Positions 7,991 through 63,235 of a stretch of 64,000 nucleotides of DNA are shown in pieces. The position numbers and the translations under genes were made by a program. How positions within the stretch are numbered: the stretch's first letter is position 1; each line of letters opens with the position of its first letter. Source of the DNA: Candidatus Omnitrophota bacterium (GTDB lineage Bacteria > Omnitrophota > Gorgyraeia > Tantalellales > Tantalellaceae). The notes below the pieces were generated by a model. The model did not search any database. It was not told the DNA's origin and saw only the letters and a list, made by a program, of their open reading frames with translations. The DNA lies in contig JBAROK010000002.1 of the NCBI GenBank assembly GCA_049642065.1, forward strand, positions 5,892 through 69,891. Direction: 5' to 3'.

Positions 7991-9607
7991 TTATTTAGTC
8001 CATTTAGGCTCTTTAAGGGTACCGGTTAGGCGAGTTTTACCCAGGAACCTTCCGAAACTGACAATAGCATTCCTTAAAGCGATCGGCCATTCTTCATCTT
8101 CTTCGGAAGGTGGGCCCAGCAGGCGGTTCTCGAAAAGGACATTGAGCTGGCCGTCAAAATCCATATATCCTTCACCGTTAATGGAGATATCCTCGCCGAG
8201 TAAGACGAGATCGTTGGTTTCAATACGGCGGTGCTTTATTTCAAAAGCCATGGAAGCGTTATCAATTTTCACGGGTTTAATAACGGGCACGAACCTTTGA
8301 GCGGCAGCGTATACGTCACCCAGAAGCGGGGTTAATAGAGGCATCAATCCGAGATCCGCATCTGAGATGGTAACCGTTCCGGTGCCTTCGGTAGTATCAA
8401 TATCCGTAGCGTATCCTTTCAGATCGAGGTTCAGCTGAAAGTTCCCGTAAACATTATCTTTGTTCCCGTTAAGGTCATACAGTAATCTCTCAAAATCCAT
8501 GTTATTCAGATCAAAACTGAACATGAACGGCAGGTCCTTTTCAAATAAATCCATTTTCAGTTTGCCGATAATCGTACCGCCGTAGATCACTCCGTTAATA
8601 AGAGGAGCGTCCAGCCTGCCATCAGTCACGGAAATTTTTGTCATTAGTTCTTTTATGCGGATCTTATCTATACTGAAATTAGTCGCTGAGATAGTAGAGC
8701 GGATCTCACATTTTTTTAAATCCATTTCTGTTGCACTAAAAAACAGGTTCGATTCTACGGATCCGGCCATGGGATATCTTCTGGCAAATTTTCCTATCTC
8801 TCCGGGCATAGCCGCGAAAGTTTCAAGTTCGGTGTTTATCGTACCGCCTACAGAACACTTAAAATCATCACCCCGAAAATCACGTACCTCACCCTTTAGG
8901 TCAAAACGGAGAGTGTAAAACATGCCCGTCAGTTTGTCTATGGTAAGATTATCCTCGTCTTTGATAAGGCTGGTGGTGAAGCCCAGGTTATCAGAACGCA
9001 CGGTAATGTCGTAGCCCAGATCTTTTATGTCTTGCCGGGTGAAGTCCGTAAGGTATTTTATGTTATTATGAGTAAGACGTATTTTTCCGCTAGAGATAGA
9101 CATTTTGTCTATCTCTAGTATCCCGAAGATATCCCGGAAAGTGAAGCTGGGGCTGCCCGCAACAGCTTCTATTATTGAAACCGAATAGATCAAGGCAGGA
9201 TCAAATATTTCCGCATGAGTTGGCGCCTTACGTGAAAGGGTGCGTAACGTCGCGTTGCAAAGAAGGTCCCCTGAATGCAACCCGTCCAGTATCATTGTGG
9301 TTTTAAGCTGTTTGTCTTTTATTAGAGAAAGGACGTCTAACGCGGTTGTTACGTTATTGATACCAATCAGAATATTCCCGGATCCGTCTTTTGATGAGAT
9401 AGTGACGTGGTCCAGTGATATCGATTGAAAGGGCACGTAACTTACAGAACCTATATTTACGGGATGTTCAAGTGCTTTGGATAATTCTGAAGCGATTCGC
9501 GTGCGCACTTCTTTATGGATATCCTCTTTATATATAGAATACAGTGTGACAAGTGCAAGCGCTGCTAAGAGGAATAAAAGTACTATTATTTTCAGAAAGG
9601 TCCTCAT
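7991..9607 (-). CDS. AsmA-like / DUF3971-type membrane-anchored outer-membrane biogenesis protein
   Basis: N-terminal TM anchor (MRTFLKIIVLLFLLAALALVTL), a long beta-rich body and an AsmA-like C-terminal region. Start chosen at the second Met (9607); the ORF extends to 9646. Confidence 0.4.
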   Translation of the reverse strand: MRTFLKIIVLLFLLAALALVTLYSIYKEDIHKEVRTRIASELSKALEHPVNIGSVSYVPFQSISLDHVTISSKDGSGNILIGINNVTTALDVLSLIKDKQLKTTMILDGLHSGDLLCNATLRTLSRKAPTHAEIFDPALIYSVSIIEAVAGSPSFTFRDIFGILEIDKMSISSGKIRLTHNNIKYLTDFTRQDIKDLGYDITVRSDNLGFTTSLIKDEDNLTIDKLTGMFYTLRFDLKGEVRDFRGDDFKCSVGGTINTELETFAAMPGEIGKFARRYPMAGSVESNLFFSATEMDLKKCEIRSTISATNFSIDKIRIKELMTKISVTDGRLDAPLINGVIYGGTIIGKLKMDLFEKDLPFMFSFDLNNMDFERLLYDLNGNKDNVYGNFQLNLDLKGYATDIDTTEGTGTVTISDADLGLMPLLTPLLGDVYAAAQRFVPVIKPVKIDNASMAFEIKHRRIETNDLVLLGEDISINGEGYMDFDGQLNVLFENRLLGPPSEEDEEWPIALRNAIVSFGRFLGKTRLTGTLKEPKWTK

Positions 9608-9669
9608 GATTGAGTAAGTATAGCATAGCAGAGCAGTGGTGGGCAAGAGTGCATGAGGGGAACAGTAAA

Positions 9670-12429: not shown

Positions 12430-13527
12430 ATGGATCTATGTGAAATTGACAGAAAGCTAAGCGAGATGGCAGTAGGCGTTGATTTTTATCCTCACCTTAC
12501 GCCGGTCAACCGGGGCGTAGAGAAGGAGAAGTTCTTTGCTGCTCTTCGGGAAGGCGGTTGTTATAACCCGCAGTTCGTTTACGGAGAAAGGAATTTTGAA
12601 AACGAAAAGAAAACTCTTTTAGAGCTGCGGGATGCCCTCGATGAAACTGATATCTTGCAAAGGATTTTCGCGGAAAAGATAGAGTTCATGCTTACCGAAC
12701 TTGAGCTTTTGGAGTCTGGGGATGGTGATTTTGCGGATATTGCCCGGCGTTTGCACGGTGAGCCTACTGCCGAATGTACGGAAAATGCGGTAAGCATCTT
12801 GGCGGAGATAAAGAGCCGTGATTACGTATTCCCGGATGAGTCTATTGCACCGGAAGAGATGGCATCTATATTACGTGCAACGATAGATGAAAAAGGGCTC
12901 GACTGGACAGTGAAAGTAACTGATAAGATCATACCCAAGATGACGGTATCCGGTAAGGATAAGACGTTATACGTGAATTCGGGCATCAAGTATACCGAGG
13001 CGGAGGTCCAGAGGTTAAAGGTACATGAAGTTAAGGTGCATATTTTCAGGGGAGCTAACGGTGCCGCGCAGCCTTACAAGATATTTACCGAAGGTCTTGC
13101 CGGATATAACGAGACCGAGGAGGGGCTGGCTATCTTGCTGGAAGAGATGTCTGGATGCCTGGATGTCGATACCCGTCAGATGAAACTCTATGCGGGCAGG
13201 GCTTTGAGCGTTGATCTTTGTTTAAAAGGGTCGTTCTATGACGCTTATCTTGGATTAAGTGAATTTTTCCCGGATTACATGGCATACCGGCTGGTTGAAA
13301 GAGCTAAAAGAGGATTAAAGGATACTTCCCGGAAAGGATGCCTTACAAAAGGGTACCATTATATAAGCGGATGGAGAAAACTGCGTAAGTATATTGAAGA
13401 AGGCGGAGATTTGAGTATAATCTATTTGGGTAAGGTCAAGCTGGAGGATGCCAATATCGTAAAGGTTCTTGTGGATAAAGGTGTGCTCAAGCCGGCAAAG
13501 TATTTACCGGATTTAATAAACAAGTAA
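12430..13527 (+). CDS. QEGLA-motif protein (DUF1704; flavohemoglobin expression-modulating / putative Tyr-Phe carboxypeptidase-like family)
   Basis: Diagnostic motif GYNETEEGLAILLEE (QEGLA variant) at nt ~13111-13150. Length 365 aa is typical for the family. Confidence 0.6.
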   Translation: MDLCEIDRKLSEMAVGVDFYPHLTPVNRGVEKEKFFAALREGGCYNPQFVYGERNFENEKKTLLELRDALDETDILQRIFAEKIEFMLTELELLESGDGDFADIARRLHGEPTAECTENAVSILAEIKSRDYVFPDESIAPEEMASILRATIDEKGLDWTVKVTDKIIPKMTVSGKDKTLYVNSGIKYTEAEVQRLKVHEVKVHIFRGANGAAQPYKIFTEGLAGYNETEEGLAILLEEMSGCLDVDTRQMKLYAGRALSVDLCLKGSFYDAYLGLSEFFPDYMAYRLVERAKRGLKDTSRKGCLTKGYHYISGWRKLRKYIEEGGDLSIIYLGKVKLEDANIVKVLVDKGVLKPAKYLPDLINK

Positions 13528-13533
13528 ATATCT

Positions 13534-14982
13534 ATGAACAAGATCAGTGAATATTTACGTGATAAATACGGGCCTTGGGGATGGCTGGGGCAACGTGCGC
13601 ATGATGCTTGCGGGATAAACCAGGTTCTTCCGCTTGATTTCATTATAAGCTGCGATTACGGGACGGAGATCCCGTATTATTTCAGGCAAGAGGACGTTTA
13701 TTCCATTGAAAAAAAGAACGGTTTGCGTAAAGACTGGTCTAACGAAGACCTGAACACGAGCCTGAAAGGTAACCTGGGCCGGGAGATATCCGAAAGATGG
13801 AATAGTTATAACAGCAAGGTGAACCTGCTTTGTTACCGTTCGGTGAGGCGCCTTGAGAACGGTAAGGGCCGGTACCAGAAGAGGCCCAGGCTATTTGCTG
13901 TTCCACAGAGCCTGAAAAAACGTTTTGATAATAAAGCGCTTCTTCATAAGAATTTGACCAAGCTTTCCATGCCATGTATACCCGGTATGGTCGATAGGAT
14001 CGCAAAGGCTGATTTTAACGACTTACGCAAAATCCTGTCGCTTCCCTTTGTGGTACAGTTCCCTTACGGCTCAAGCGGCCATTATACTTTCGGTCTACGG
14101 GAAGAGAAAGATTATGACGAGCTGAGGAACGCTCATCCTGATGCTACCGCACTTATCAGAAGATATATAGACGGGTTTTCGCTGAACGTGAACGCCGTAA
14201 TAGTCTCTTCCGAGGAAGGCCCGCGTGTTATGTGTTCGTCCCCGTCGGTACAGATAACAGGCATTCCCGAATGCAGTAATTCACCGGCTTCCTTTTGCGG
14301 TAACGATTACGCGGCGGCCAAGGATCTTGACCGTTCTATCGTCAGGCAGGTTGAAACTCATATGCAAACCGTTGGCAAATGGATGGCCGCTTCGGGATTC
14401 AGGGGCATTTTCGGTATGGATTTTGTCCTAAAGGACGGCACTATTTATCCGGTAGAAATAAACCCGAGGTTTCAGAACTCGACTTCGCTTTACACGGTAC
14501 TAAGCTCGATGTCACGGTCCCGTAAAGGAACACTTTTCTTGCTTCATATAGCGGAATTCCTGCAAAAAGAAGACAAGTTTCTGCGTGAATATTTAAAAGA
14601 GTTCCCGGAACGTGAGCTCATGCGGCCTTTGAACGGTAGCCAGCTGATATTACATAACCGTATGCGGAAGAATATAATAACAGGGGAACTGGCTCCGGGA
14701 GTGTATAAGAGGGACGGCCGTGAACTTAAACTCGTTAGACAAGGTGCTTCGCTTAATGATTGTCGTAACGGCGGGGAACTATTGATCACCTGTGGTGTCC
14801 CCAGACCCTATCTTACGATTGAACCTAACGCGGCGCTTTTAAAAATCCAGATGCGCGATAATATACTGGACGTTTCTAATAAAAGGCGGCTTACGCCTGA
14901 GGCGAAGAAAGTGGTATCTTTAGTGTACGAAAAAATAGGGTTAAAAAGCGCGAATAAAATAGAAGTAGCCAGATCTGTTTGA
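13534..14982 (+). CDS. ATP-grasp family ligase (RimK/alpha-L-glutamate-ligase-like), 482 aa
   Basis: C-terminal ATP-grasp signature GIFGMDFVLKDGTIYPVEINPRF. 6-nt gap to the upstream gene. Confidence 0.5.
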   Translation: MNKISEYLRDKYGPWGWLGQRAHDACGINQVLPLDFIISCDYGTEIPYYFRQEDVYSIEKKNGLRKDWSNEDLNTSLKGNLGREISERWNSYNSKVNLLCYRSVRRLENGKGRYQKRPRLFAVPQSLKKRFDNKALLHKNLTKLSMPCIPGMVDRIAKADFNDLRKILSLPFVVQFPYGSSGHYTFGLREEKDYDELRNAHPDATALIRRYIDGFSLNVNAVIVSSEEGPRVMCSSPSVQITGIPECSNSPASFCGNDYAAAKDLDRSIVRQVETHMQTVGKWMAASGFRGIFGMDFVLKDGTIYPVEINPRFQNSTSLYTVLSSMSRSRKGTLFLLHIAEFLQKEDKFLREYLKEFPERELMRPLNGSQLILHNRMRKNIITGELAPGVYKRDGRELKLVRQGASLNDCRNGGELLITCGVPRPYLTIEPNAALLKIQMRDNILDVSNKRRLTPEAKKVVSLVYEKIGLKSANKIEVARSV

Positions 14983-32758: not shown

Positions 32759-33847
32759 ATGAGAATAATTGAAAAATACGTTTTAAAAAGTTTTCTAGCT
32801 TCGCTCGCTTTCTGTATATTGCTTCTTATCGTGCTGGGCATTATAGGTGATGTGCTGGGTTTCATAGACGATATTTTCAAGAACAATATTCCTCTGGGCA
32901 GTATCCTTTCATTTTATTTTTACTTAGCGCCGTTCGCATTCGTTAACATGTTGCCATTTGCTTGTATATTGAGTGTGGCTTTTGTATTCAATAGCTTAAG
33001 TAAGAACCATGAGGTAACGGCGGTCATAGCCAGCGGATTAAGTTTATGGAAACTTCTAAGACCGGTTATCTGTGTGACTTTTGTGCTCTGTATAGCTACA
33101 TTTATAATCAACGATCGTTTCGTGCCTTCAACCATGCAAAAAGCCAACAGGATCAAACAGGAAGAGCTCGAGACGGGCAAGGACGTTGACTCATCCATCA
33201 TCAGGAACTTAGCAGTATACGGCAAAGGCGACCAGATAATCTTCGCTAAATCGTATTCTCCTAAAACGAAAACGCTTGAGAACGTTATCATACACAAACA
33301 GGATAAAGACCACGTCATAAAAGAGAAGGTTAGTGCCAGAGAAGTGAAACGTCTTCCGGACAATACCTGGGAAGGGACAGATGTTATTGTCTTTAGAGTG
33401 GATGATAAAGGCGATTTTACCAAGGACCCGGAAGTGTACAAGCGGGTAAAACTGAATATCAAGGAGACCCCTAAGGATTTTTCTACCCATCAATGGGATC
33501 CGAGGTTCATGAGCTTTAAGCAGCTCAAGAAATATCTAAAGATATTCAGTGTAGGGTCTCCCCGGACCGTTAGGCGTCTTCTTGTGGACCTGAACTATAA
33601 ACTGTCTTTTCCCTTTACCGCGCTGGTGACTATACTTATCTGCGTGCCTTTCAGTATAGAGACCGGCCGGGCTAATCCTTTGGTAGGTATGGTGCGGGGG
33701 ATAACCGTAGCGATGCTGTACGTGCCGGTTATGGCCATAAGCCTTGCGCTCGGCAAAGGTGGCACTCTTCCTCCGGTAGTCGCGGCTTGGTTCAGCAATG
33801 TGCTATTTGTTGCTTTAGGCATTTATTTTATCCATCAGAAAAGCTAG
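32759..33847 (+). CDS. lptG: LPS export ABC permease LptG (YjgP/YjgQ family)
   Basis: Paralogous YjgP/YjgQ permease immediately downstream of lptF. Confidence 0.7.
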   Translation: MRIIEKYVLKSFLASLAFCILLLIVLGIIGDVLGFIDDIFKNNIPLGSILSFYFYLAPFAFVNMLPFACILSVAFVFNSLSKNHEVTAVIASGLSLWKLLRPVICVTFVLCIATFIINDRFVPSTMQKANRIKQEELETGKDVDSSIIRNLAVYGKGDQIIFAKSYSPKTKTLENVIIHKQDKDHVIKEKVSAREVKRLPDNTWEGTDVIVFRVDDKGDFTKDPEVYKRVKLNIKETPKDFSTHQWDPRFMSFKQLKKYLKIFSVGSPRTVRRLLVDLNYKLSFPFTALVTILICVPFSIETGRANPLVGMVRGITVAMLYVPVMAISLALGKGGTLPPVVAAWFSNVLFVALGIYFIHQKS

Positions 33848-34509
33848 GGCGTTTTTGCCAGAGTAAAACCGTATACGCAGCGAGCACCCGCCTTAAGAAG
33901 TTCACGCGCGCAAGTTTCAAGTGTAGCTCCGGTTGTCACGATGTCATCAACAAGCACCAGGTTTCTTCCCGTAACCAGCGTGCGATCGACCACAGCGAAA
34001 GAACCGTCCAGGTTCCTCATGCGCTTATTCCTTGCAAGGGCAGTCTGAGGGCCGGTATTCTTGGTTTTAATCAGCGTATGCCGCTGAACCGGTACCGATA
34101 TCTCTTGCGAAAGTATAGTAGCTATAAGTTCCGATTGGTTGTATCCTCTGGCGCGTCGTTTTGAAGGATGGACAGGTACAGGGATGGCTCCATGTATCTG
34201 TTCCGAAAAGGGATGTGTTCTGTTTATGAAGGTATGGACTACCGGCTGGAAAAGGTCCATAAGCTTAAGTTTCCCTGAATACTTGAATTGTTTCACGCAT
34301 TTCTTTATTGCCCCTTCATAATACCTGCACGAGAGGATTTTTGTAAGGTTTTTAGACGAACCCAGTGCCGGTGCGGCTGCGCGGATGACCGAATCGCTGC
34401 ATCTGGAGCAGACAGGTAGCGGGTACGCCGCCGGAAGAGTGCCGCAAGCTATACATTGTTCAGGGAATAGTATGTTAACACACGACCGGGCTACTTTTGC
34501 GAATGACAT
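33844..34509 (-). CDS. comF: ComF-family protein (phosphoribosyltransferase-like, ComFC/GntX)
   Basis: N-terminal zinc-finger-like CxxC..CxxC and C-terminal PRTase motif LVLVDDIVTTGATL. Confidence 0.7.
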   Translation of the reverse strand: MSFAKVARSCVNILFPEQCIACGTLPAAYPLPVCSRCSDSVIRAAAPALGSSKNLTKILSCRYYEGAIKKCVKQFKYSGKLKLMDLFQPVVHTFINRTHPFSEQIHGAIPVPVHPSKRRARGYNQSELIATILSQEISVPVQRHTLIKTKNTGPQTALARNKRMRNLDGSFAVVDRTLVTGRNLVLVDDIVTTGATLETCARELLKAGARCVYGFTLAKTP

Positions 34510-50895: not shown

Positions 50896-50923
50896 TTGAC
50901 ATAGAAAGAGGGTGTGTTAAAAT
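50896..50923 (+). promoter_or_regulatory. strong sigma70-like promoter upstream of PilZ gene
   Basis: TTGACA-16 nt-TAAAAT. Confidence 0.45.
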
Positions 50924-50960: not shown

Positions 50961-51302
50961 ATGAGAGAACAGCGGAGTTACGTCAGATATAATATATTCA
51001 TGGAAGATGTTGATGGCCTGAGTTGTAGTCACAAAGGCACAGGTATAGATATCAGTGATATATCATATAATGGGATAGGGCTCTGCCTGAGCGAGAGATT
51101 GTCTATAGGCGATAAAATCGATCTGGAAATATATGTACCTAAAGATGATATTCCCATGTTCGTCACAGCAGAGGTAGCATGGGTGGCCAGAGATACCGAT
51201 ATGGAGAACGTATTTCGTACGGGTTTATATCTCTCAAAGATCAGTTCATGCGATAAAGAGCGCCTCCTCAAATACCTCAATAGCTGCTTCTCATTTATAT
51301 AA
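50961..51302 (+). CDS. PilZ-domain protein (putative c-di-GMP receptor)
   Basis: 113 aa. N-terminal RSYVRY (RxxxR-like) and internal D/SxSxxG-like segment (IDISDISYNGIGL) consistent with PilZ. Confidence 0.55.
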   Translation: MREQRSYVRYNIFMEDVDGLSCSHKGTGIDISDISYNGIGLCLSERLSIGDKIDLEIYVPKDDIPMFVTAEVAWVARDTDMENVFRTGLYLSKISSCDKERLLKYLNSCFSFI

Positions 51303-51430
51303 AAAGCTTTTACTTTACACAGCCCCTTTCTTGGGGGTATAATCTTACCAAGTGATATAGCCTAAATATAATATTACTATTATTTCTGTTTTCTACTTGT
51401 TTCTTATCATCTTCAATCAGGAGGGTGGGT

Positions 51431-52174
51431 ATGTCCCGTTTCAAAAAGAGCTCTGCAATTTTTCTTGCGATTACTGTAATAAGTGTTATCTTCGCGTTCC
51501 AGGCGTTTTCCGCTGAAGACGTGGAGAAGTATATTCCCGATACCGATGTAGCCGAACAGGGGATGACGCTCTGGCAGATCATCGTAGCTGGAGGCGAAGT
51601 AATGTTGGTCCTGGCTTTTTTGTCTATTGCAGCTGTAGGGCTTATTGTCTATTATTTTCTGACAATAAAACAGGATACACTGATCCCTCAGGATTTCCAA
51701 GAAGAAGTGATGCCGATGATCGAGGGAGGGCGGTACGAGGAGGCTAAAGAAGTGTGCTCAGGAAAGGATAACCTGATATCGGGCGTACTTCTGGCAGGGC
51801 TCACACGTATCGGGCGCGACAAGAGCGTTATAAAAGAAGCTATCCAGGATGCGGGCAGGCGCAAAATTGACGACTTGCGCCAGAAACTCAGTTACCTGGC
51901 TGATGTCGCCGCGATATCACCGATGGTAGGGCTCTTAGGTACCGTGCTTGGCATGATACAGGCGTTCAACGTTATCGCTTTCCAGACGGGAGCGGTAAAA
52001 CCGATACTTTTAGCGAGTGGTATATCCAAAGCTATGGTTACCACGGCTACCGGGCTTATAATAGCTATACCGGCAATGATATTTTATTCGTTCTTCAAAG
52101 GTAAAGTGCAGAACTTTACGGCAAGGCTTGAAGACGTATCTACTGAACTGTTCCATCTCATAACAGAAAAATAA
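51431..52174 (+). CDS. exbB: MotA/TolQ/ExbB-family proton channel
   Basis: 3-TM topology. Conserved C-terminal block AISPMVGLLGTVLGMIQAF of ExbB/TolQ. AGGAGG RBS 8 nt upstream. Has an N-terminal signal-like extension. Confidence 0.8.
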   Translation: MSRFKKSSAIFLAITVISVIFAFQAFSAEDVEKYIPDTDVAEQGMTLWQIIVAGGEVMLVLAFLSIAAVGLIVYYFLTIKQDTLIPQDFQEEVMPMIEGGRYEEAKEVCSGKDNLISGVLLAGLTRIGRDKSVIKEAIQDAGRRKIDDLRQKLSYLADVAAISPMVGLLGTVLGMIQAFNVIAFQTGAVKPILLASGISKAMVTTATGLIIAIPAMIFYSFFKGKVQNFTARLEDVSTELFHLITEK

Positions 52175-52203
52175 CTGGCGCATTACCTGTCGCGGGGGGA
52201 TAA

Positions 52204-52629
52204 ATGGATTTTTCTGACGAAAGACAAGCGTTATCGGAGAGGCCCACAATACAAATGGCGCCTCTTATAGACATAATTTTCCTACTGCTCATATTTTTTA
52301 TGGCAGCTTCCATATTCTACCAACTCGAGACAGAGATAAACATCACCGTACCCACGGCAAAAGAATCTACCGATATCAAACGCGCTCCCGGAGAGATAAT
52401 CATAAATATTCGTAAAGACGGAGCCGTAGTGGTTAATCAGAGAAAGATGAGCTACGAAGAGCTTGACCGTATGCTTAAACGGGTATCCGAGCTCTATAAA
52501 GGGCAGCCTGTTATCATCAGAGCGGATAAAGAGACGTATCACAAGAACGTCATCAAGGTCCTAGATCTCTGTGCGGGAGCCGATATCTGGAACGTATCTT
52601 TTGCCACAATGAAAGAGAAAGAAGAATAG
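52204..52629 (+). CDS. exbD: ExbD/TolR-family biopolymer transport protein
   Basis: MAPLIDIIFLLLIFFM N-terminal TM with the conserved Asp. 141 aa. Confidence 0.8.
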   Translation: MDFSDERQALSERPTIQMAPLIDIIFLLLIFFMAASIFYQLETEINITVPTAKESTDIKRAPGEIIINIRKDGAVVVNQRKMSYEELDRMLKRVSELYKGQPVIIRADKETYHKNVIKVLDLCAGADIWNVSFATMKEKEE

Positions 52630-55001
52630 TGACCCTGCAACCGGTGCGAGTCTTGAAAGTTTTAACACTAGTGAGTTTGATCCTAAGTGTCCCTTTAACC
52701 TGTGGGCATGTTTCTTACGCGCAGGAAAAGAATGTTGACGCGGAAGTTGAGGAATTTGATTTCGCTAACGGTTTGTTCTCGCGTGGCATGTATGACATGG
52801 CTATCGACGGGTACAAGGATTTTCTAAAGGATCATCCAGAAAGCCAGTATGCCGAACTGGCGAACTATAGGATAGCCGAATGCTACTTCATGGATAAAAA
52901 ATACGATGAAGCGATCAACAGGTTCGGCATGTTCCTTAAGGAATATCCTAAGGGCGAATTTGTGGGGAAGGCAACGTTACGCAAAGCCCAGGTGCATTAC
53001 ATTAGGGAGGATTATCCGGCTGCGAAACGTATATTGAATGAACTGGCATCTGCTTCTGATGAAAGTGATGCGGCTATTTCCGCGAAATATTACCTGGCCG
53101 GAATACATTTTAAGCAGGGAGATTATACTGCCTCGATAAAGATCCTTGAAGATATCCTGGCAAAGCCTGGAAGCGGCGAATATACCGCGTTTGCTTATAT
53201 AAACCTCGGGGATATCTATACGGAACAGAAGGATTATGCTAAAGCTGCGGATTATTATAACAAGGCCAGTATCTCGGCAAAGAATAAGGAAGCGGTAGCT
53301 AAGGCAGCTTTCCGTGCCGGTAACGCGTATTACCTTGCAGGAGAGTACGATAAGGCTAAAGAACATTACCGTAAAGTGACCAGTGAGCCAGGTCACTCGG
53401 ATACGTTTAATAGTGCTGCACTCGGTCTTGTATCTACTTTGTACAAGAGCGGTGAATATAAATGGGTGATAGAATCCGCACGAGATATCCTTCCTAGCGT
53501 AAAAGACGATTCAGTAAAAGCTCAAATACTCTTTTTGCTTGGCAACAGTTATTTTTTTAGCGACCAGTTCGTTGAAGCGGATAAAGTATACGCAGAAGCT
53601 GCAGAAGCCTATCCCGATTCGAAGTTCGGTATAAAGTCGATGCTCAACCGATGCTGGGCGCTTTACAGGCTAGGCAAATACCAAGAATGCCTTACGGGAA
53701 TCAAAACATATATGTCAAAAACAAAAGATTCTGTGGATGAGGTTCTATATATCAAGGCGGAAGCTCTTATCGGTGCTGGTTACACTACTAAAGCTGTAGA
53801 GGCTTATAAGGTTCTGGCCAAAGATTTTGCGGATTCTGAATATCATAAAGAAGCGCTGTACGAAATAGGGTGGGTGTACGCCGCCTCAGGCCAGGCCGAA
53901 GAAGCTATACGCAATTACCAGTTGTTCGTAGAAGAGTATCCAGATGACCCGCGCGCACCGTCAGTTCTTTTGAAAGCAGCCCAGGAAAACTTGGACCTAG
54001 AACGTTATAACGAGGCCGAAACGGATTATATGAAGTTCCTTTCGACGTTCAGTGAAAGTCCACTGAAAGAGAACGTTCTTTTTCAGCTGGGCAGGGTATA
54101 TATGGAGAAGGGCGACTTGGAGAAGGCCCTGAACACATATCTGAAGTTCCTGGAAGAGTTCCCGGAATCAGAGGCTTCTGATGCTGCGGTTTACTGGACG
54201 GGAAGAGCTTATCAACAGAACCAGGATTGGGAGAAAGCGCTCAGCGCTTATACACGTTTGGCTGCGGATAGAGAAGGTGAATTCTATGGCAAAGCAGTAG
54301 AGTCCATGGCGTACTCTTATTTCCAGAAAGGCGAGTTTGATAAAGCCACCGTGAAATATTACGTGCTTATGGTCGATGAAAAGGATCTTACTTTACCCGA
54401 GGGTGTGTATAAATGGGTATCGGATTATTATATGAATAATGGCCAGAACGATAAGTCCCTTGAAGTGCTTAAGATTCTTTCCGAGAAACACCCCGATAAA
54501 TCTACTAACGGTGGAGTATATTACATGTATGGCGAGAATTATGGGCAGCTTGGTGACTGGGGGAAAGCTGAGGAGTATTTTAACAAGGCGATAAAAAGCG
54601 GAGTAACTTCTCCGTACAGGGAACGCGCTTATCTTGGGTTAGGTAAGTCATATTTTGCTTCAGGTAATTACGATAAAGCTGTTGAGATGTTGAGCGAAGC
54701 GCTTAAGACCCGTGAAGACAATCTAACGGGAGCGCTTGCCAGGTTCGAGATGGGCAATGTCAAATTCAAGGTGATGGATTTTGAAGAAGCCGCAAAACAG
54801 TACATGATGGTAGCGATATTGTACGATGACCAAGAGCTGTGTTCAAAAGCTCTTTTTCGTGCCGGGACAGCTTTTGAAAAAGCCAATATGCCCGGAAAGT
54901 CCGTTGAAGCCTTCGGGGAGCTTATTGAAAGGTATCCCGATAGCTCAATGGCAAAGGAAGCGGAAGAAGAGATAAAGCGGGTGAAAAGTGAAGCAAGGTA
55001 A
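52629..55001 (+). CDS. large secreted tetratricopeptide-repeat protein
   Basis: 790 aa, signal peptide, and roughly 15 or more TPR-like repeats (repeated W/Y..A.Y..G.YY..A pattern). GTG start overlaps the exbD stop by 1 nt. Confidence 0.7.
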   Translation: MTLQPVRVLKVLTLVSLILSVPLTCGHVSYAQEKNVDAEVEEFDFANGLFSRGMYDMAIDGYKDFLKDHPESQYAELANYRIAECYFMDKKYDEAINRFGMFLKEYPKGEFVGKATLRKAQVHYIREDYPAAKRILNELASASDESDAAISAKYYLAGIHFKQGDYTASIKILEDILAKPGSGEYTAFAYINLGDIYTEQKDYAKAADYYNKASISAKNKEAVAKAAFRAGNAYYLAGEYDKAKEHYRKVTSEPGHSDTFNSAALGLVSTLYKSGEYKWVIESARDILPSVKDDSVKAQILFLLGNSYFFSDQFVEADKVYAEAAEAYPDSKFGIKSMLNRCWALYRLGKYQECLTGIKTYMSKTKDSVDEVLYIKAEALIGAGYTTKAVEAYKVLAKDFADSEYHKEALYEIGWVYAASGQAEEAIRNYQLFVEEYPDDPRAPSVLLKAAQENLDLERYNEAETDYMKFLSTFSESPLKENVLFQLGRVYMEKGDLEKALNTYLKFLEEFPESEASDAAVYWTGRAYQQNQDWEKALSAYTRLAADREGEFYGKAVESMAYSYFQKGEFDKATVKYYVLMVDEKDLTLPEGVYKWVSDYYMNNGQNDKSLEVLKILSEKHPDKSTNGGVYYMYGENYGQLGDWGKAEEYFNKAIKSGVTSPYRERAYLGLGKSYFASGNYDKAVEMLSEALKTREDNLTGALARFEMGNVKFKVMDFEEAAKQYMMVAILYDDQELCSKALFRAGTAFEKANMPGKSVEAFGELIERYPDSSMAKEAEEEIKRVKSEAR

Positions 55002-56655
55002 AACTGTACTCCTGGCTCTTCTGGTATCTGTTACGGCACATGCCGTTTTTTTTGCTACAGCACCTCATATTATGCTCGCGGGTATGCATAGTGTGATTGG
55101 CGAGACAAAAAAGATATTTCGTTTGCAAGGGGTGGAAGAGGAGCCTGCCAGCGTGGATCTTTTCGAAGGAGCTCAGCCACCACCACCTTCTATCAAAATG
55201 ACGCAGCAGGTTTCTCAAATGGCAGGTATAGCTTCAGAGAAGATGATGATAGACAGGAAGATGGACGAGGATCTTTCTCTGCAGGATAAGAAGAAGCAGA
55301 TGGATGCGGAAAGTATTGACGAGAGTTTACCTGAACCGGAGGAGTTCGATAATGGCGCCAGAATGGAAATAGACGCTAAGAAAGAGCGCGAAGAAGCCAC
55401 GCCCGATAAGAGGTCTCTGGCTGAACGGCTCTCAACGGAAAGGCTTGTTAAATATCCCACATCATCTGATCTTCCTGCTGAGAGCAAGATGTCGTATGAT
55501 TTTAAGAAGGGTAAGCGGGCGCCTCATGCCGGGACAAGCGAATGGACACCCGGCAGTTCAAAGGTCTTTCAGTCCGGTGAAGAGGAACTATCCGCTGCAA
55601 GAAGAAGCGCGAGGATAGGTGATTACGAGGATATAGGCGAATTTTTGAACGTGGCAGTTAAAGTGTATGAAGATCCCGGAACGGGCGAAAAATATTTCAA
55701 GATAATTATAAGCACGAGGAGAGGAAACAACCTTGAAGTTATCCCCAAAGAGATCATTTTTCTGGTAGATTCGTCGAAGAGTATAACTGAGGAGAAACTT
55801 TCTTATATCAAAGAAGGTCTTTTAGATTCTCTTGGGCAGCTTAATGAAGGAGACCGGTTCAACCTGGTGGCGTTTAGGGGAGATCTTGTCAGGTTCATGG
55901 AAGATCCAGTACCCGTACGGGAAAGGACCCTGGAAAAGGGAAGATCTTTCATCAAACAGCTAGAAGCTGTAGGTCAGACGGATGTTGAGAATGCGCTTCT
56001 TGGAATTATCAAGGAACCGATTGCGTTCCGCCCGTCGTATATTATCCTTATTACCGATGGAAGGCCCACAACGGGAGTTACCGATTCGCGCAGGATCATA
56101 CAACAGATCACCCGGCAGAATAATATGGAGCGTCCGATATTCTGTTTCGGTGGTGGCAGGAGAGTGAACCATTACTTGTTGGATTTTGTTTCGTATCAGA
56201 ACAGGGCCTGGAGCCGTTTCGCAGAAACCACTCATGATATGAGAAAAGAGTTTGACGAACTTTACCGGCAGATAAAGGACCCCATACTTCTCAATGTCAG
56301 GTACCGGTTAAAGGGGGTTGGGGTCGAAGAGGTTTATCCCAAATACCTTTCGGATTTTTATAAAGGCAAACCGTTTACACTGTACGGACGGTTTACGGAT
56401 GAAGATGTCTTTTCGGTCCAGATCTTAGGGCAGATAAACGGCGGAACAAAGGAATTCATATTCAAAAGCTCGCTTACCGAAGCTGAAAAGGCCGGCGCTA
56501 ATATTGCCAAAGAATGGGCGTTCAGGAAAATATATTATTTAATAAGCCAGAACACTATGGGTCTAGGCGATCCTGTGCGGCTTCGTGCGGAGATAGAAGA
56601 GTTAAGCCGGAAATACGATATTATTACTCCGTATGACATAGAGGATAGTGACTAA
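54988..56655 (+). CDS. TonB-like N-terminal membrane anchor fused to von Willebrand factor A domain
   Basis: N-terminal TM LLALLVSVTAHAVFF carries the SxxxH motif of TonB anchors. A Pro/charged linker follows, then a C-terminal VWA domain (IIFLVDSSKS...ILITDGRPTTG). Overlaps the TPR gene by 14 nt. Confidence 0.5.
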   Translation: MKQGKTVLLALLVSVTAHAVFFATAPHIMLAGMHSVIGETKKIFRLQGVEEEPASVDLFEGAQPPPPSIKMTQQVSQMAGIASEKMMIDRKMDEDLSLQDKKKQMDAESIDESLPEPEEFDNGARMEIDAKKEREEATPDKRSLAERLSTERLVKYPTSSDLPAESKMSYDFKKGKRAPHAGTSEWTPGSSKVFQSGEEELSAARRSARIGDYEDIGEFLNVAVKVYEDPGTGEKYFKIIISTRRGNNLEVIPKEIIFLVDSSKSITEEKLSYIKEGLLDSLGQLNEGDRFNLVAFRGDLVRFMEDPVPVRERTLEKGRSFIKQLEAVGQTDVENALLGIIKEPIAFRPSYIILITDGRPTTGVTDSRRIIQQITRQNNMERPIFCFGGGRRVNHYLLDFVSYQNRAWSRFAETTHDMRKEFDELYRQIKDPILLNVRYRLKGVGVEEVYPKYLSDFYKGKPFTLYGRFTDEDVFSVQILGQINGGTKEFIFKSSLTEAEKAGANIAKEWAFRKIYYLISQNTMGLGDPVRLRAEIEELSRKYDIITPYDIEDSD

Positions 56656-56688: not shown

Positions 56689-56835
56689 GTGAATATTAAA
56701 AGAATTATCATGGCATTGATGCTGGCGGTATATGTCCTGAGTTCGGCCGGTTGCGCGGTTGCATGGTTTCTTGTAGGCGCGGGGACCGCAGCTACGGTCG
56801 GGGCGGTAATGGACGAAGAGAAAAAAACTAAGTAA
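56689..56835 (+). CDS. small lipoprotein (48 aa)
   Basis: GTG start after AAGGAGAGTGAGG. Lipobox LSSAG-C then AVAWFLVGAGTAATVGAVMDEEKKTK. Below the ORF-track length cut-off, so found by eye. Confidence 0.35.
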   Translation: MNIKRIIMALMLAVYVLSSAGCAVAWFLVGAGTAATVGAVMDEEKKTK

Positions 56836-56877: not shown

Positions 56878-57018
56878 GTGACGCTTAATCACCTTATTTA
56901 TATTTTATCAATAGTGTTCGGTGTGCTTATACTGGCTGCGCCGAAGATAGCAAGTTACCTTGTCGGTGCGTACTTAATCGCGTTCGGTGTGATAAAACTT
57001 ATTATTGTATTAAGTTAA
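56878..57018 (+). CDS. DUF3096-like small membrane protein (46 aa)
   Basis: GTG start with a strong RBS. IVFGVLILAAPKIASYLVGAYLIAFGVIKLIIVL resembles the DUF3096 consensus. Confidence 0.4.
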   Translation: MTLNHLIYILSIVFGVLILAAPKIASYLVGAYLIAFGVIKLIIVLS

Positions 57019-57040: not shown

Positions 57041-57427
57041 ATGCAAATGAGAGCGGAGATCAAAGAGAAGGAAAGAGAACTCGAGTCGGAAATACGCAGT
57101 TTTGAGAAAGAACGGGAAAATATACGGCGCATAATCGGAAAGATCGGAGGAGTTCCTACAGGAAAAGGCCGTGTCATTAATGTGATCTTTATCATACTGG
57201 TGCTTGCTGTATTTGCCATGTCCATTATATGGGGAGGACGGATCAGGTTCTTTATGATAGAAGTGGGTATATTGCTTCTATCTATAAAACTTATCTATTT
57301 TCTTGAATCTCATATGAAATTAAACCATTTTCAGTTCTGGATCCTGTCTTCACTTGAATGGCGGCTTGATAAGATAGATAAGACATTGAAAGATATAGTA
57401 AAAAACAATGCTAAAAATGAACAGTGA
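57041..57427 (+). CDS. hypothetical membrane protein with N-terminal coiled-coil
   Basis: Charged helical N-terminus (EIKEKERELESEIRSFEKEREN) followed by two TM helices. Confidence 0.35.
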   Translation: MQMRAEIKEKERELESEIRSFEKERENIRRIIGKIGGVPTGKGRVINVIFIILVLAVFAMSIIWGGRIRFFMIEVGILLLSIKLIYFLESHMKLNHFQFWILSSLEWRLDKIDKTLKDIVKNNAKNEQ

Positions 57428-60409: not shown

Positions 60410-61402
60410 ATGTCCCAGGGTATTACCGCCATAAACGAAAAAGTCGAAAAAGAAAGTGTATTTGTAGAGGAGCTTCTGGCTGAGATAAGGAAAGTGATAG
60501 TCGGGCAGGATTATCTTATCGAACGGCTTCTTGTAGGGCTTCTTGCTAACGGGCATGTGCTTATAGAAGGTGTGCCGGGTCTTGCTAAGACTATGTCGGT
60601 AAGAGTGCTCTCTGCGGCTATCGATACGGGTTTTCAGAGGTTGCAGTTCACACCGGATCTATTGCCCGCTGACCTTATAGGTACGCTGGTCTATAACCCT
60701 AAGGACGGCAACTTCACTACTAAAAAAGGGCCTATCTTCTCGAATATCATACTTGCCGATGAGATCAACAGGGCTCCTGCAAAAGTCCAGAGCGCGCTTC
60801 TTGAAGCTATGCAGGAAAGACAGGTAACCATAGGTCAGAATACCTTCAAGCTGGACGAACCTTTCCTGGTGCTTGCTACACAGAATCCCATCGAGCAGGA
60901 AGGTACGTACCCGTTGCCCGAAGCCCAGGTAGACCGCTTTATGCTCAAGATAAATATAGGCTACCCGAGCAAGGAAGAGGAACATAAGATACTTAAAAGG
61001 ATGGCGGTTACCAACAAGAAACTCGAAGTTAAACCGGTAGTCTCTCCCAAAAAGATAATCGAGGCCAGGAACGTCGTAGACGAAATTTACATGGACGAAA
61101 AGATCGAGAAATACATAGTAGATATCGTGTTCGCTACGCGTAACCCGAAAGATTACGGTCTGGATGACCTGGAAGGTCTTATAGATTACGGGGCGTCCCC
61201 TCGCGCGAGTATCAATCTGGCGCTTACCGCTAAAGCGTATGCTTTTGTGCAGAGGCGCGGATACGTTACACCACAGGATATTAAGTCCATAGGTCCGGAC
61301 GTGCTTCGTCACAGGGTAATCCCCAGTTACGAGGCTGAAGCTCAGGATAAGAACTCGGAAGACATTATAAAAAGAGTGTTTGACGAAGTAGAAGTGCCAT
61401 AA
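60410..61402 (+). CDS. moxR: MoxR-family AAA+ ATPase
   Basis: IVGQDYLIERLLVGLLANGHVLIEGVPGLAKT and NRAPAKVQSALLEAMQE blocks. Confidence 0.85.
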   Translation: MSQGITAINEKVEKESVFVEELLAEIRKVIVGQDYLIERLLVGLLANGHVLIEGVPGLAKTMSVRVLSAAIDTGFQRLQFTPDLLPADLIGTLVYNPKDGNFTTKKGPIFSNIILADEINRAPAKVQSALLEAMQERQVTIGQNTFKLDEPFLVLATQNPIEQEGTYPLPEAQVDRFMLKINIGYPSKEEEHKILKRMAVTNKKLEVKPVVSPKKIIEARNVVDEIYMDEKIEKYIVDIVFATRNPKDYGLDDLEGLIDYGASPRASINLALTAKAYAFVQRRGYVTPQDIKSIGPDVLRHRVIPSYEAEAQDKNSEDIIKRVFDEVEVP

Positions 61403-61404
61403 AT

Positions 61405-62292
61405 ATGATTCCCAAAGATGTAATAAGCAAGATACGAAGGATCCAGATAACGACGACACGGAAAGTGACGGACGTTTTCGCGGGCCAGTACCAGAGCGTC
61501 TTTAAGGGCGTCGGTATGGAGTTTGATGAAGTGCGTCAGTACATGCCGGGAGACGAGATACGGTCGATCGACTGGAACGTTACAGCCCGTATGGGGCATC
61601 CTTACGTTAAGAAGTTCGTGGAGGAAAGAGAACTTACCATCATGATACTTCTGGATGTATCGATGTCCTGCCGGTTCGGAACGGCCGGACGTATAAAAAG
61701 CGAACTTGCGGCGGAGCTGTGTTCCGTTATCGCTTTTTCCGCTATACAGAACAACGATAAAGTGGGGATGCTGACGTTTACCGATCGTGTAGAAAAGTTC
61801 GTTCCTCCGCGTAAAGGTGTCCGGCACGTGTTGCGGGTGGTTCGTGAGGCTATTTATAACACTCCAGAGGGTACAGGGACGGATATCAACAATATACTTG
61901 AGTATCTTAACAGGGTATCTACCAGACGCACAATAACTTTTCTGGTGTCTGACTTTTTTGCTCCGGATTTCAAGAAAACGCTTTCAATAACCAATAAAAG
62001 ACATGATGTCATTGCAGTTACCATAACTGATCCCGCTGAACTGACTCTTCCAAAAGCGGGTATCGTGAAGTTGCATGACGCGGAAACCGGGACCCCTTTT
62101 GAGGTGGATACTTCAAATCCGTCTTTAAGGAAAGCGTATGAAGAACGCTCAGGCGAATTCATGTCAAAACGCACTGAAGTATTCCGTTCAACAGGGGTGG
62201 ATAGTATCGATATTCGCACGAATTTATCTTATGTAGAACCGCTCATAAGGTTCTTCAAAATGAGGGAGAGAAGACTGCGAGGAGGTAGATAA
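61405..62292 (+). CDS. DUF58 protein (VWA-like, MoxR partner)
   Basis: EFDEVRQYMPGDEIRSIDWNVTAR motif characteristic of DUF58. Confidence 0.8.
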   Translation: MIPKDVISKIRRIQITTTRKVTDVFAGQYQSVFKGVGMEFDEVRQYMPGDEIRSIDWNVTARMGHPYVKKFVEERELTIMILLDVSMSCRFGTAGRIKSELAAELCSVIAFSAIQNNDKVGMLTFTDRVEKFVPPRKGVRHVLRVVREAIYNTPEGTGTDINNILEYLNRVSTRRTITFLVSDFFAPDFKKTLSITNKRHDVIAVTITDPAELTLPKAGIVKLHDAETGTPFEVDTSNPSLRKAYEERSGEFMSKRTEVFRSTGVDSIDIRTNLSYVEPLIRFFKMRERRLRGGR

Positions 62293-62293
62293 G

Positions 62294-63235
62294 TTGACTT
62301 TCCTTAAAAAAAGTTTAATAGTTTTGGGTGTGCTGTTTTATGTCGCTTGTGCTGAAGCACAAAACAGGTCAGATATTGTACTGAACATAACTGCAGATGT
62401 AGATAAAGACCAGGTGAATATAGGTGACCGGATCAAGCTCGACGTTAAAGCTGAAGGCGCATCGGGATATGATCTTATTTTTCCGGAAGAGATGAAAGAT
62501 CTTGGTGATTTTTCGCTAAAGAGTTCCAGTCCAATAGAAGAAGGACGCGGGAAAAAAATAGTAGGCCGTGAATACATACTGGGTGTATACAGTACCGGTA
62601 TACATGTTATTCCTCCAGTGGAAGTTATGTACCGGAAAGAGAGCAAGGAAGAGTGGCATGCTGCTAAAAGCCCGCAAGTGCCAATAGACGTGAGGAGCCT
62701 CTTAACGGGCAAAGACACCGATATAAAAGACCTGAAAGGACTGGCCGCTTTCGGGGGAGGATTTCCAAGGGCATTGATCGTTCTGGTTGTACTTATAGCT
62801 ATAGCAGCTGTTATATGGCTGCTATGGAAGAGAAGAGCTGCTATAGTATCCGCTCAATTAGCCGAAGAAAAATCCGCGTATGAGATCGCTCACGAAGAGC
62901 TTAATCACCTTAAAGCTGAGGACCTTCCGGGGCAGGGACGTGTAAAGGAATATTACACACAGCTTGCTGACATAATCAGGCATTATCTGGAGAGAAGATT
63001 CTCATACAGAGCACCTGAGATGACAACAGAAGAGTTTATGGGAGAACTTAAAAAGTCGCCTCTTATGATGGAAGAGCATAAGAGTCTGCTTAAAGATTTC
63101 CTGTCGAGATGTGATATGGTGAAGTTCGCGAAATACGGACCAACACCGTTGGAGATGATAGACAGCTTCAAGTCGGCAGAGCAGATGGTAGAACAGACCC
63201 ATGAAGAAGAACAGCCGGAGGAGGTCGAAGCATGA
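62294..63235 (+). CDS. hypothetical membrane protein of the Bat-like operon
   Basis: Signal peptide, a central TM helix (ALIVLVVLIAIAAVIWLLW), an acidic C-terminus. Same position as the TM 'hypothetical' between DUF58 and BatA in Bat operons. Confidence 0.45.
   Translation: MTFLKKSLIVLGVLFYVACAEAQNRSDIVLNITADVDKDQVNIGDRIKLDVKAEGASGYDLIFPEEMKDLGDFSLKSSSPIEEGRGKKIVGREYILGVYSTGIHVIPPVEVMYRKESKEEWHAAKSPQVPIDVRSLLTGKDTDIKDLKGLAAFGGGFPRALIVLVVLIAIAAVIWLLWKRRAAIVSAQLAEEKSAYEIAHEELNHLKAEDLPGQGRVKEYYTQLADIIRHYLERRFSYRAPEMTTEEFMGELKKSPLMMEEHKSLLKDFLSRCDMVKFAKYGPTPLEMIDSFKSAEQMVEQTHEEEQPEEVEA

Follow-up and report, generated by a model that had tools for sequence, protein, structure and literature searches.

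A four-gene operon in a 64,000-nucleotide stretch of DNA (the window) from a metagenome-assembled genome (MAG) of a Candidatus Omnitrophota bacterium (GCA_049642065.1, contig JBAROK010000002.1, positions 5,892 to 69,891 of the forward strand) probably encodes a 5:2 stator-type motor, driven by the proton-motive force, that comes with its own periplasmic force transducer. The outputs of 5:2 proton motors were long thought to be few: flagella, TonB import, Tol-Pal, gliding and Zorya defence. In the predicted system, the motor pair is encoded with a giant secreted TPR protein and with a membrane-anchored protein that ends in a VWA domain and would take the place of TonB or TolA. The four genes are:

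51425-52174 (+), ExbB/TolQ-like protein, 249 amino acids (PF01618, E 8e-32)
52204-52629 (+), ExbD/TolR-like protein, 141 amino acids (PF02472, E 4e-28)
52629-55001 (+), secreted TPR protein, 790 amino acids (TPR_6, E 1e-59)
54988-56655 (+), inner-membrane-anchored VWA protein, 555 amino acids, the proposed force transducer (VWA_3, VWA_2 and VWA models, residues 255-398)

The start of the TPR gene and the stop codon of the ExbD gene have one nucleotide in common, and the VWA gene overlaps the TPR gene by 14 nucleotides. An earlier reading of the letters alone (the original prediction) had described these four open reading frames (ORFs) and a PilZ gene upstream of them, and their order, coordinates and both overlaps are all as it gave them.

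The gene order is strictly conserved. The VWA-family alignment was run against GTDB, with each species represented by one genome, and returned 226 relatives; the best 80 of these loci, nearly all from Omnitrophota MAGs, were examined. The comparison set comprises 85 loci, five of which came from protein look-ups rather than the genome scan, each with up to 10 kb on either side of the match; the window proteins were searched against these loci, and all ORFs were clustered into families. The order ExbB-ExbD-TPR-VWA, on one strand and with a single ExbD, occurs in 65 of the 65 loci in which all four genes were detected, and these take in all of the loci with sufficient upstream DNA, which number 62. 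The VWA gene is always linked to exbB-exbD-TPR wherever upstream DNA is covered, and the TPR and VWA genes abut or overlap in 55/65 four-gene loci. These four are the only gene families widely common to the comparison loci, the other recurrent neighbours being clade-specific housekeeping genes, and two loci (L002 and L004) have the unit intact amid wholly different flanks. With the genes in the same order in all 65 loci, the arrangement is not due to chance and is that of a fixed unit. Whether exbBD-TPR-(TM-VWA) is syntenic in other genomes, a question raised with the original prediction, is thus answered positively.

An exhaustive profile search divided the VWA family into 150 or more clusters at 50% identity, almost all of full length. 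With the TPR protein as query, the unit was also located in L086, from a Hydrogenedentes genome, and in L088, from a contig of 3.5 Mb. A locus from Chthoniobacterales (L087, GCA_013815325.1, 5729-9535) encodes ExbB, ExbD and an 844-amino-acid TPR protein in this order; it has no VWA gene, and the next gene is on the opposite strand. The pair of motor and giant TPR protein may be older or more widespread than its VWA partner.

The motor subunits retain residues associated with proton conduction. The ExbB-like protein matches ExbB (E 3e-15) and TolQ (E 1e-12) in the PDB. Its pore threonines, in LGTVLG and TTATG, align to T148 and T181 of ExbB, and the transmembrane (TM) aspartate of the ExbD-like protein, in PLIDIIF, aligns to D25 of Escherichia coli ExbD; all are conserved across loci. 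The proline of TM3 is present in the ExbB-like protein of the window. In its TM1, Ser67, which aligns to S28 of TolQ, is kept in 64/68 sequences, and a conserved tyrosine (Y76, 59/68) follows nine residues later. Cryo-electron microscopy of the E. coli complexes places the Ser-His pair of TonB or TolA in contact with Ser34 and Trp38 of ExbB or Ser28 and Trp32 of TolQ, in TM1 (PMC12215075). PDB sequence matches favor ExbB/ExbD over TolQ/TolR for both subunits, and the TolQ/TolR models of NCBIfam outscore the ExbB/ExbD models. Because every NCBIfam equivalog score is below its cut-off, the pair is, judged by sequence, neither a canonical TolQR nor a canonical ExbBD. Residues 1-30 of the ExbB-like protein form an N-terminal segment resembling a signal peptide (MGMSRFKKSSAIFLAITVISVIFAFQAFSAED), and the subunit of the predicted ExbB pentamer probably has a processed periplasmic N-terminus. 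A defence-system assignment was rejected; PADLOC models gave only a weak generic ZorA/MotA match.

The VWA protein has a TonB-like topology overall. Both this protein and the TPR protein were modelled singly with AlphaFold2, and fold matches were sought in the PDB with Foldseek. The overall pLDDT (predicted local distance difference test) of the VWA model is 75.7. Conservation of the helix and motifs was counted in a 42-sequence alignment (A1), and wider counts refer to 211 near-full-length family representatives. The parts of the protein are:

54994-55059 (+), N-terminal transmembrane helix, residues 3-24 (model pLDDT 82-93)
55114-55134 (+), conserved amphipathic motif IFRLQGV, residues 43-49 (F44 in 37/42, position 46 aliphatic in 42/42, V49 in 28/42)
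55117-55620 (+), charged, mostly disordered periplasmic linker, residues 44-211 (36% D/E/K/R, 7% Pro)
55630-56622 (+), globular head, residues 215-545 (pLDDT above 90)

The helix, LLALLVSVTAHAVFF, holds a serine and a histidine spaced as in TonB and TolA, S14-x3-H18 (codons at 55027-55029 and 55039-55041). S14 is found in 36/39 and H18 in 38/40 sequences of A1, whereas the rest of the helix is variable, and SxxxH occurs in 168 of the 211 representatives; a further nine representatives are truncated and five fall outside all helix patterns. A near-invariant Ser-x3-His in an otherwise variable helix is unexplained by a passive anchor, which makes such an anchor unlikely. A cleaved signal peptide is argued against because the histidine would occupy the unconstrained -2 position of an AxA site, and position 19 is often leucine or isoleucine. 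The suggestion that this helix carries a TonB-type motif and is not a generic anchor is thus borne out by its conservation. The profile search proposed alongside it gave VWA matches at residues 255-398, and the TonB_N, TonB_C and TolA models, PF03544, PF06519 and PF13103 included, had no match to the VWA protein at E<=0.01.

About 20 residues past the helix, the family shares the pattern (I/L/M)-F-R-(I/V/L)-(K/R)-x-V. The D-box of TonB, which is captured by the ExbD dimer, is a strand of alternating hydrophobic and polar residues (PMC10907165). By its position and alternation, the motif in the VWA protein is a candidate D-box, or motor-box, for capture by the ExbD dimer. The linker beyond it is poorly conserved, and its pLDDT falls below 50 throughout residues 138-211 and across most of residues 44-120. 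It had been called a Pro/charged linker. Its charge is evident, but at 36% charged residues and 7% proline it is better described as charged and disordered than as Pro-rich.

The head has two beta strands ahead of its VWA domain and four behind it, and closes with a helical hairpin. Its metal-ion-dependent adhesion site (MIDAS), composed of D261/S263/S265 (55768-55782), T331 and D357, is invariant in A1, and DxSxS is present in 211/211 representatives. The best Foldseek match of the head is inter-alpha-inhibitor heavy chain (ITIH) 1 (6fpy; E 1e-23 over 344 columns). Like the ITIH/VIT-VWA proteins and the integrin beta-I domain, it combines a MIDAS-bearing VWA domain with beta strands on both sides, and its best NCBIfam match, below the cut-off, is a VIT-VWA sortase-target family. 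It differs from these proteins in that it has no full VIT domain, while its next-best sequence relatives carry PF08487, and, unlike the secreted ITIH, it is tethered to the inner membrane and always encoded beside a proton motor. An ITIH-like VWA head also occurs as an internal domain (residues 1533-1882, 384 bits against the family profile) in a protein of 2170 amino acids (P0222).

The TPR protein has a Sec-type signal peptide and no conserved cysteine, and should therefore be soluble in the periplasm. Eight stretches match the YbgF/CpoB model TIGR02795, and the repeats score best against YbgF/CpoB and BamD models. Its AlphaFold2 model (pLDDT 91) is an unbroken solenoid of 41 helices, or about 20 TPR pairs, and contains no other domain. 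The most conserved stretch, residues 44-55 (DFANGLFSRGMY), is the first helix of the mature protein. Foldseek returned generic solenoids only; the best TM-score listed, 0.37, was to a TPR chain of the Campylobacter flagellar-motor periplasmic scaffold, a likeness that we regard as analogy only.

These features suggest how the machine could work. A complex of five ExbB-like and two ExbD-like subunits would conduct protons through the ExbD aspartate and the ExbB threonine ring. The VWA protein would cross the inner membrane once, N-in/C-out, and the Ser-x3-His face of its helix would dock on the outside of the ExbB pentamer, as in TonB and TolA. The strand-like motif about 20 residues past the helix could then be captured by the periplasmic ExbD dimer in the manner of the TonB D-box, and the charged linker of about 170 residues would span the periplasm, so that force might be transmitted to the ITIH/integrin-like head, which is predicted to grip an acidic residue of a partner through its intact MIDAS metal site. 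The secreted solenoid of 20 TPRs, translationally coupled on both sides, may be an adaptor or scaffold of the complex. If this is correct, a VWA/MIDAS head on a TonB-like arm would provide metal-mediated, possibly force-sensitive coupling instead of beta-strand augmentation.

The idea of a VWA-headed transducer is already in print as a prediction. Force transducers with a vWA domain, encoded next to tolQ, tolR and TPR genes, were proposed computationally with Tichowtungia aerotolerans (Kiritimatiellota) as the type (Mol Biol Evol 2025;42:msaf138, PMC12204202). In that design, described from the PVC group, an SHLS helix leads through a disordered linker to a C-terminal vWA domain; the transducer is encoded with a tolQ-like gene, two tolR-like genes and a TPR gene, and AlphaFold3 models put the helix histidine on the motor. 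The window unit resembles this class in its Ser-x3-His helix, disordered linker and VWA head, and in its tolQ-like, tolR-like and TPR neighbors, which accompany the VWA gene in 65/65 loci. The arrangement is different: the Tichowtungia locus has two TolR-like genes, two transducers and a TPR gene ahead of the motor, whereas the Omnitrophota unit has one TolR, one transducer and a TPR gene between motor and transducer. The Tichowtungia protein lacks the DxSxS MIDAS that is invariant in the family described here, has no Pfam VWA match, and aligns with the family in hhalign over 100 VWA columns only, at a probability of 84%. The two thus appear to share a design, and the alignment falls short of demonstrating a single sequence family.

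The published class was listed for Proteobacteria, Planctomycetes, Verrucomicrobia, Bacteroidetes and Rhodothermaeota, and not for Omnitrophota or Hydrogenedentes; the supplementary entry labelled "Omnitrophica" comes from Hinthialibacteria, in a genome that carries a classical tol-pal locus (PMC12204202). A search of the published literature on Omnitrophota, part of which was too loose, found no account of the four-gene unit. New here are the MIDAS-bearing ITIH-like head, the single TolR, the TPR gene inside the operon and the extension to two further phyla. All of the related loci examined have the system, in two phyla that are largely uncultured. The core of the original prediction, an Exb/Tol motor in which the TonB equivalent carries a VWA head, is supported by the conservation of the Ser-His pair, the constant linkage of the four genes and the independent 2025 proposal. 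With a single motor, TPR protein and transducer, all translationally coupled, the unit is unusually clean, which makes it well suited to reconstitution and to a test of the 2025 prediction.

Among characterized systems, the unit shares features with both Tol-Pal and Ton. It is like Tol-Pal in having a TolQR-type motor, a Ser-x3-His transducer with a long charged linker, a housekeeping gene context and, in the periplasm, a TPR protein with YbgF/CpoB as the best-scoring model for its repeats. It differs in that the VWA head stands in place of TolA domain III, the equivalent of Trp32 of TolQ is not kept in ExbB, no TolB or Pal gene is adjacent, and the TPR protein, with its roughly 20 repeat pairs and 790 amino acids, is about threefold larger than CpoB (263 positions in the E. 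coli model). Neither a TolB gene nor one of the Pal/OmpA family was detected among the 31 larger window ORFs that were scanned for Pfam domains or among the locus-shared families. Ton supplies the closest PDB matches for both motor subunits, and the threonine ring, the ExbD aspartate and a Ser-x3-His anchor are common to both; a candidate D-box follows the helix at a spacing like that in TonB. In contrast to Ton, the transducer has no TonB C-terminal domain, the equivalent of E176 in ExbB is lysine, and TonB-dependent receptors are missing from the vicinity.

Several observations weigh against a motor-coupled VWA transducer. The Tol-versus-Ton affinity of the motor is ambiguous because the PDB favors ExbB/ExbD. 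The E176 equivalent is lysine in 61/65 Omnitrophota loci, and the TM1 position of Trp38 in ExbB and Trp32 in TolQ is occupied by V, L, T or I; because this tryptophan is not kept, the interface between helix and motor must differ in detail from that of E. coli. A profile of the 52 N-terminal residues recovered E. coli TolA from the PDB in register (S18/H22), at a non-significant E=2, and a light-harvesting helix outscored TolA in the same search. In about 18-20 of the 211 representatives, a clade of proteins of about 590 amino acids that includes Hydrogenedentes, tyrosine replaces the histidine; another 11 have a different small residue followed by histidine, at least two of these being of the tyrosine type on inspection. 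No outer-membrane or cell-wall partner gene beside the unit is conserved across the loci. For the published class, no phenotype and no experiment on any member were reported (PMC12204202). Furthermore, proteins with a TonB C-terminal domain exist in some Omnitrophota (bioRxiv 10.64898/2026.06.07.730766), and the unit need not replace these.

The tyrosine-type VWA genes are at 8001-9791 in L004, 5364-7118 in L086 and 9450-11228 in L088. The ExbB of this clade (Hydrogenedentes and unlabelled contigs) has glutamate or glutamine at the E176 position and glycine for the TM1 serine. Such paired differences may fit a co-evolving interface between helix and motor, though they represent a single phylogenetic event. 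On two independent contigs of the tyrosine type, L004 (1975-5220) and L088 (3065-6543), the unit comes directly after ftsZ and a gene for a T2SSE/PilT-like ATPase; the order upstream in L004 is murC, a POTRA-domain (FtsQ-like) gene and ftsZ.

Some of these points would be explained if the VWA protein were a passive anchored or secreted protein of the BatA/BatB or YfbK type, co-transcribed with the motor and uncoupled from it, while the real TonB- or TolA-type transducer was encoded elsewhere. The misses of the TonB and TolA models, the E value of the TolA match, the missing tryptophan partner in ExbB TM1, the loss of the histidine in the sister clade, the TonB_C proteins in the phylum and the verrucomicrobial locus L087, where ExbB-ExbD-TPR occurs without a VWA gene, would all agree with this. 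A passive protein accounts poorly for the near-invariant Ser-x3-His in a variable helix, the conserved post-helix motif and the strict co-linearity in 65/65 loci, and no TonB/TolA-like gene was found in any comparison neighborhood; we consider a passive role improbable. Nutrient uptake, in which the VWA head would engage outer-membrane transporters and the unit would act as a TonB-like import energizer, seems to have only a slim chance of being correct. The topology is TonB-like overall, and ExbB and ExbD are the best PDB sequence matches, but none of about 90 neighborhoods contains a gene for a TonB-dependent receptor, and the head, not being a TonB C-terminal domain, would work via its MIDAS rather than by beta-strand augmentation.

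A device for motility, adhesion or host attachment would be analogous to the Myxococcus Agl-Glt machinery with its VWA adhesin CglB, a comparison made in the 2025 paper. Agl-Glt is reported to join TolQR-type motors to TPR proteins, proteins like TonB and a VWA adhesin (PMC9946355, PMC11761067), and many Omnitrophota have been inferred to be host-dependent (PMC10066038). We nevertheless find this function quite unlikely here. A linker of about 170 residues holds the head to the inner membrane, and there is no sign that the head crosses the outer membrane; Glt-like outer-membrane components were not seen among the neighbors, and the unit lies amid housekeeping genes.

For the motor with a VWA transducer, the physiological role can be proposed only tentatively. 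A Tol-Pal-like housekeeping role, in tethering or remodelling the outer membrane or cell wall, is our leading guess, although we would sooner expect it to prove wrong than right. We raise it because of some weak hints: the CpoB-type repeats, the housekeeping neighbors and the position of the unit one gene after ftsZ in L004 and L088. Another weak hint in this direction is that the TolQ/TolR NCBIfam models outscore those of ExbB/ExbD. If correct, the system could reveal how the outer membrane is maintained in small, often host-dependent cells. A more elaborate and rather unlikely hypothesis joins these elements. Here the unit of Omnitrophota and Hydrogenedentes would be an independent division or envelope machine doing the job of TolA-TolB-Pal, with the head acting as a force-activated, catch-bond MIDAS clamp. 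Pulling on the linker by the motor would, through the flanking beta strands, switch the MIDAS to high affinity for an acidic residue; this could be the near-invariant aspartate in the DFANGL motif, which lies at the N-terminus of the mature TPR protein, or a residue of a partner in the outer membrane or cell wall. The interface would have co-evolved, with histidine, ExbB lysine and TM1 serine in Omnitrophota and tyrosine, ExbB glutamate or glutamine and TM1 glycine in the other clade.

The gene immediately upstream of the unit, and the promoter-like sites around it, are:

50896-50923 (+), sigma-70-like promoter match before PilZ, TTGACA-16-TAAAAT with an extended -10 TG (11/12, consensus match only)
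50961-51302 (+), stand-alone PilZ protein, 113 amino acids (PF07238, E 2e-10)
51314-51343 (+), sigma-70-like promoter match before ExbB, TTTACA-18-TATAAT (11/12, consensus match only)

The region has 21 promoter-like sites, versus 14.5 +/- 3.9 in shuffled sequence, and we therefore count these sites as consensus matches only. The original prediction placed a PilZ gene with a strong promoter directly upstream of the motor; the position and an 11/12 site are both there, and the strength of the promoter amounts to a consensus match. The site before ExbB suggests that the four-gene unit is transcribed apart from PilZ.

PilZ does not travel with the unit. It is present in 7/85 comparison loci, all of them close relatives, and within the close clade in six of the 11 loci that show the upstream DUF6873 gene; the seventh PilZ locus starts too late to show it. 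Wherever the upstream gene is visible, PilZ sits between it and ExbB, with a gap to ExbB that varies, and PilZ is never translationally coupled to the unit. PilZ is thus an accessory, clade-specific neighbor outside the conserved unit. Control by cyclic di-GMP, at which this gene hinted in the original prediction, is not a conserved feature, because ExbB is preceded by a promoter-like site of its own and PilZ is confined to seven close relatives. Its binding motifs are intact (RxxxR at R5-R9 and DxSxxG at D33-G38), and a PilZ protein located directly upstream in the window and in seven close relatives could in principle bind ExbB or ExbD and gate the machine, as YcgR does on the flagellar motor. 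With PilZ absent from 78/85 loci, including roughly half of the close clade, a variable gap to ExbB, a separate promoter-like site and no instance of translational coupling, we give such a cyclic di-GMP brake very little chance.

Upstream of PilZ are dus, maf, a radical-SAM gene and the DUF6873 gene. Downstream of the VWA gene are small membrane ORFs, a deaminase gene and a helicase gene, followed by an operon of the MoxR-DUF58 Bat type. A lipoprotein gene encoding 48 amino acids (56689-56835, +), with an LSSAGC lipobox and a Gly-zipper-like AGAGTAATVGA, begins 34 nucleotides past the VWA gene. It was rejected as a partner of the unit; a near-identical gene is found only in L001, L006, L013, L015 and L016 among 79 loci. 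After it come a hydrophobic ORF of 46 amino acids (56878-57018, +) and a membrane protein of 128 amino acids without a Pfam match (57041-57427, +), the latter conserved after the unit in some 11 close loci. The Bat operon, of the aerotolerance type (MoxR-DUF58-BatA-BatB), begins with:

60410-61402 (+), MoxR AAA+ protein, at the start of the operon
61405-62292 (+), DUF58 gene
62294-63235 (+), ORF of 313 amino acids, no Pfam match

Bat operons resemble the unit in combining TM-anchored VWA proteins with a TPR protein, and this one lies about 4 kb downstream. It differs in that its partner is the AAA+ protein MoxR, whereas the unit has a proton motor, and the deaminase and helicase genes lie between the two. 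The original prediction had left the relation between them unclear. MoxR/Bat genes are near the unit in 12/85 comparison loci, where they are separated from it by unrelated genes; this adjacency is clade-specific, a link between the two was rejected, and the Bat/MoxR operon is an independent neighbor. In L001, the operon continues with two VWA genes.

The other 21 larger ORFs scanned in the window are housekeeping genes or have no assignment. A homologue of the MATCAP family (microtubule-associated tyrosine carboxypeptidase) is encoded beside an ATP-grasp protein (12430-14982, +), an unusual pairing for bacteria, and is followed by an ORF of 532 amino acids with no Pfam match. The window is coded almost wholly on the plus strand, and an AsmA/YhdP-like protein (7991-9646, -) is encoded on the other. 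This ORF and one at 33844-34509 are the only minus-strand ORFs of at least 150 amino acids that are clear of plus-strand ORFs of at least 150 amino acids.

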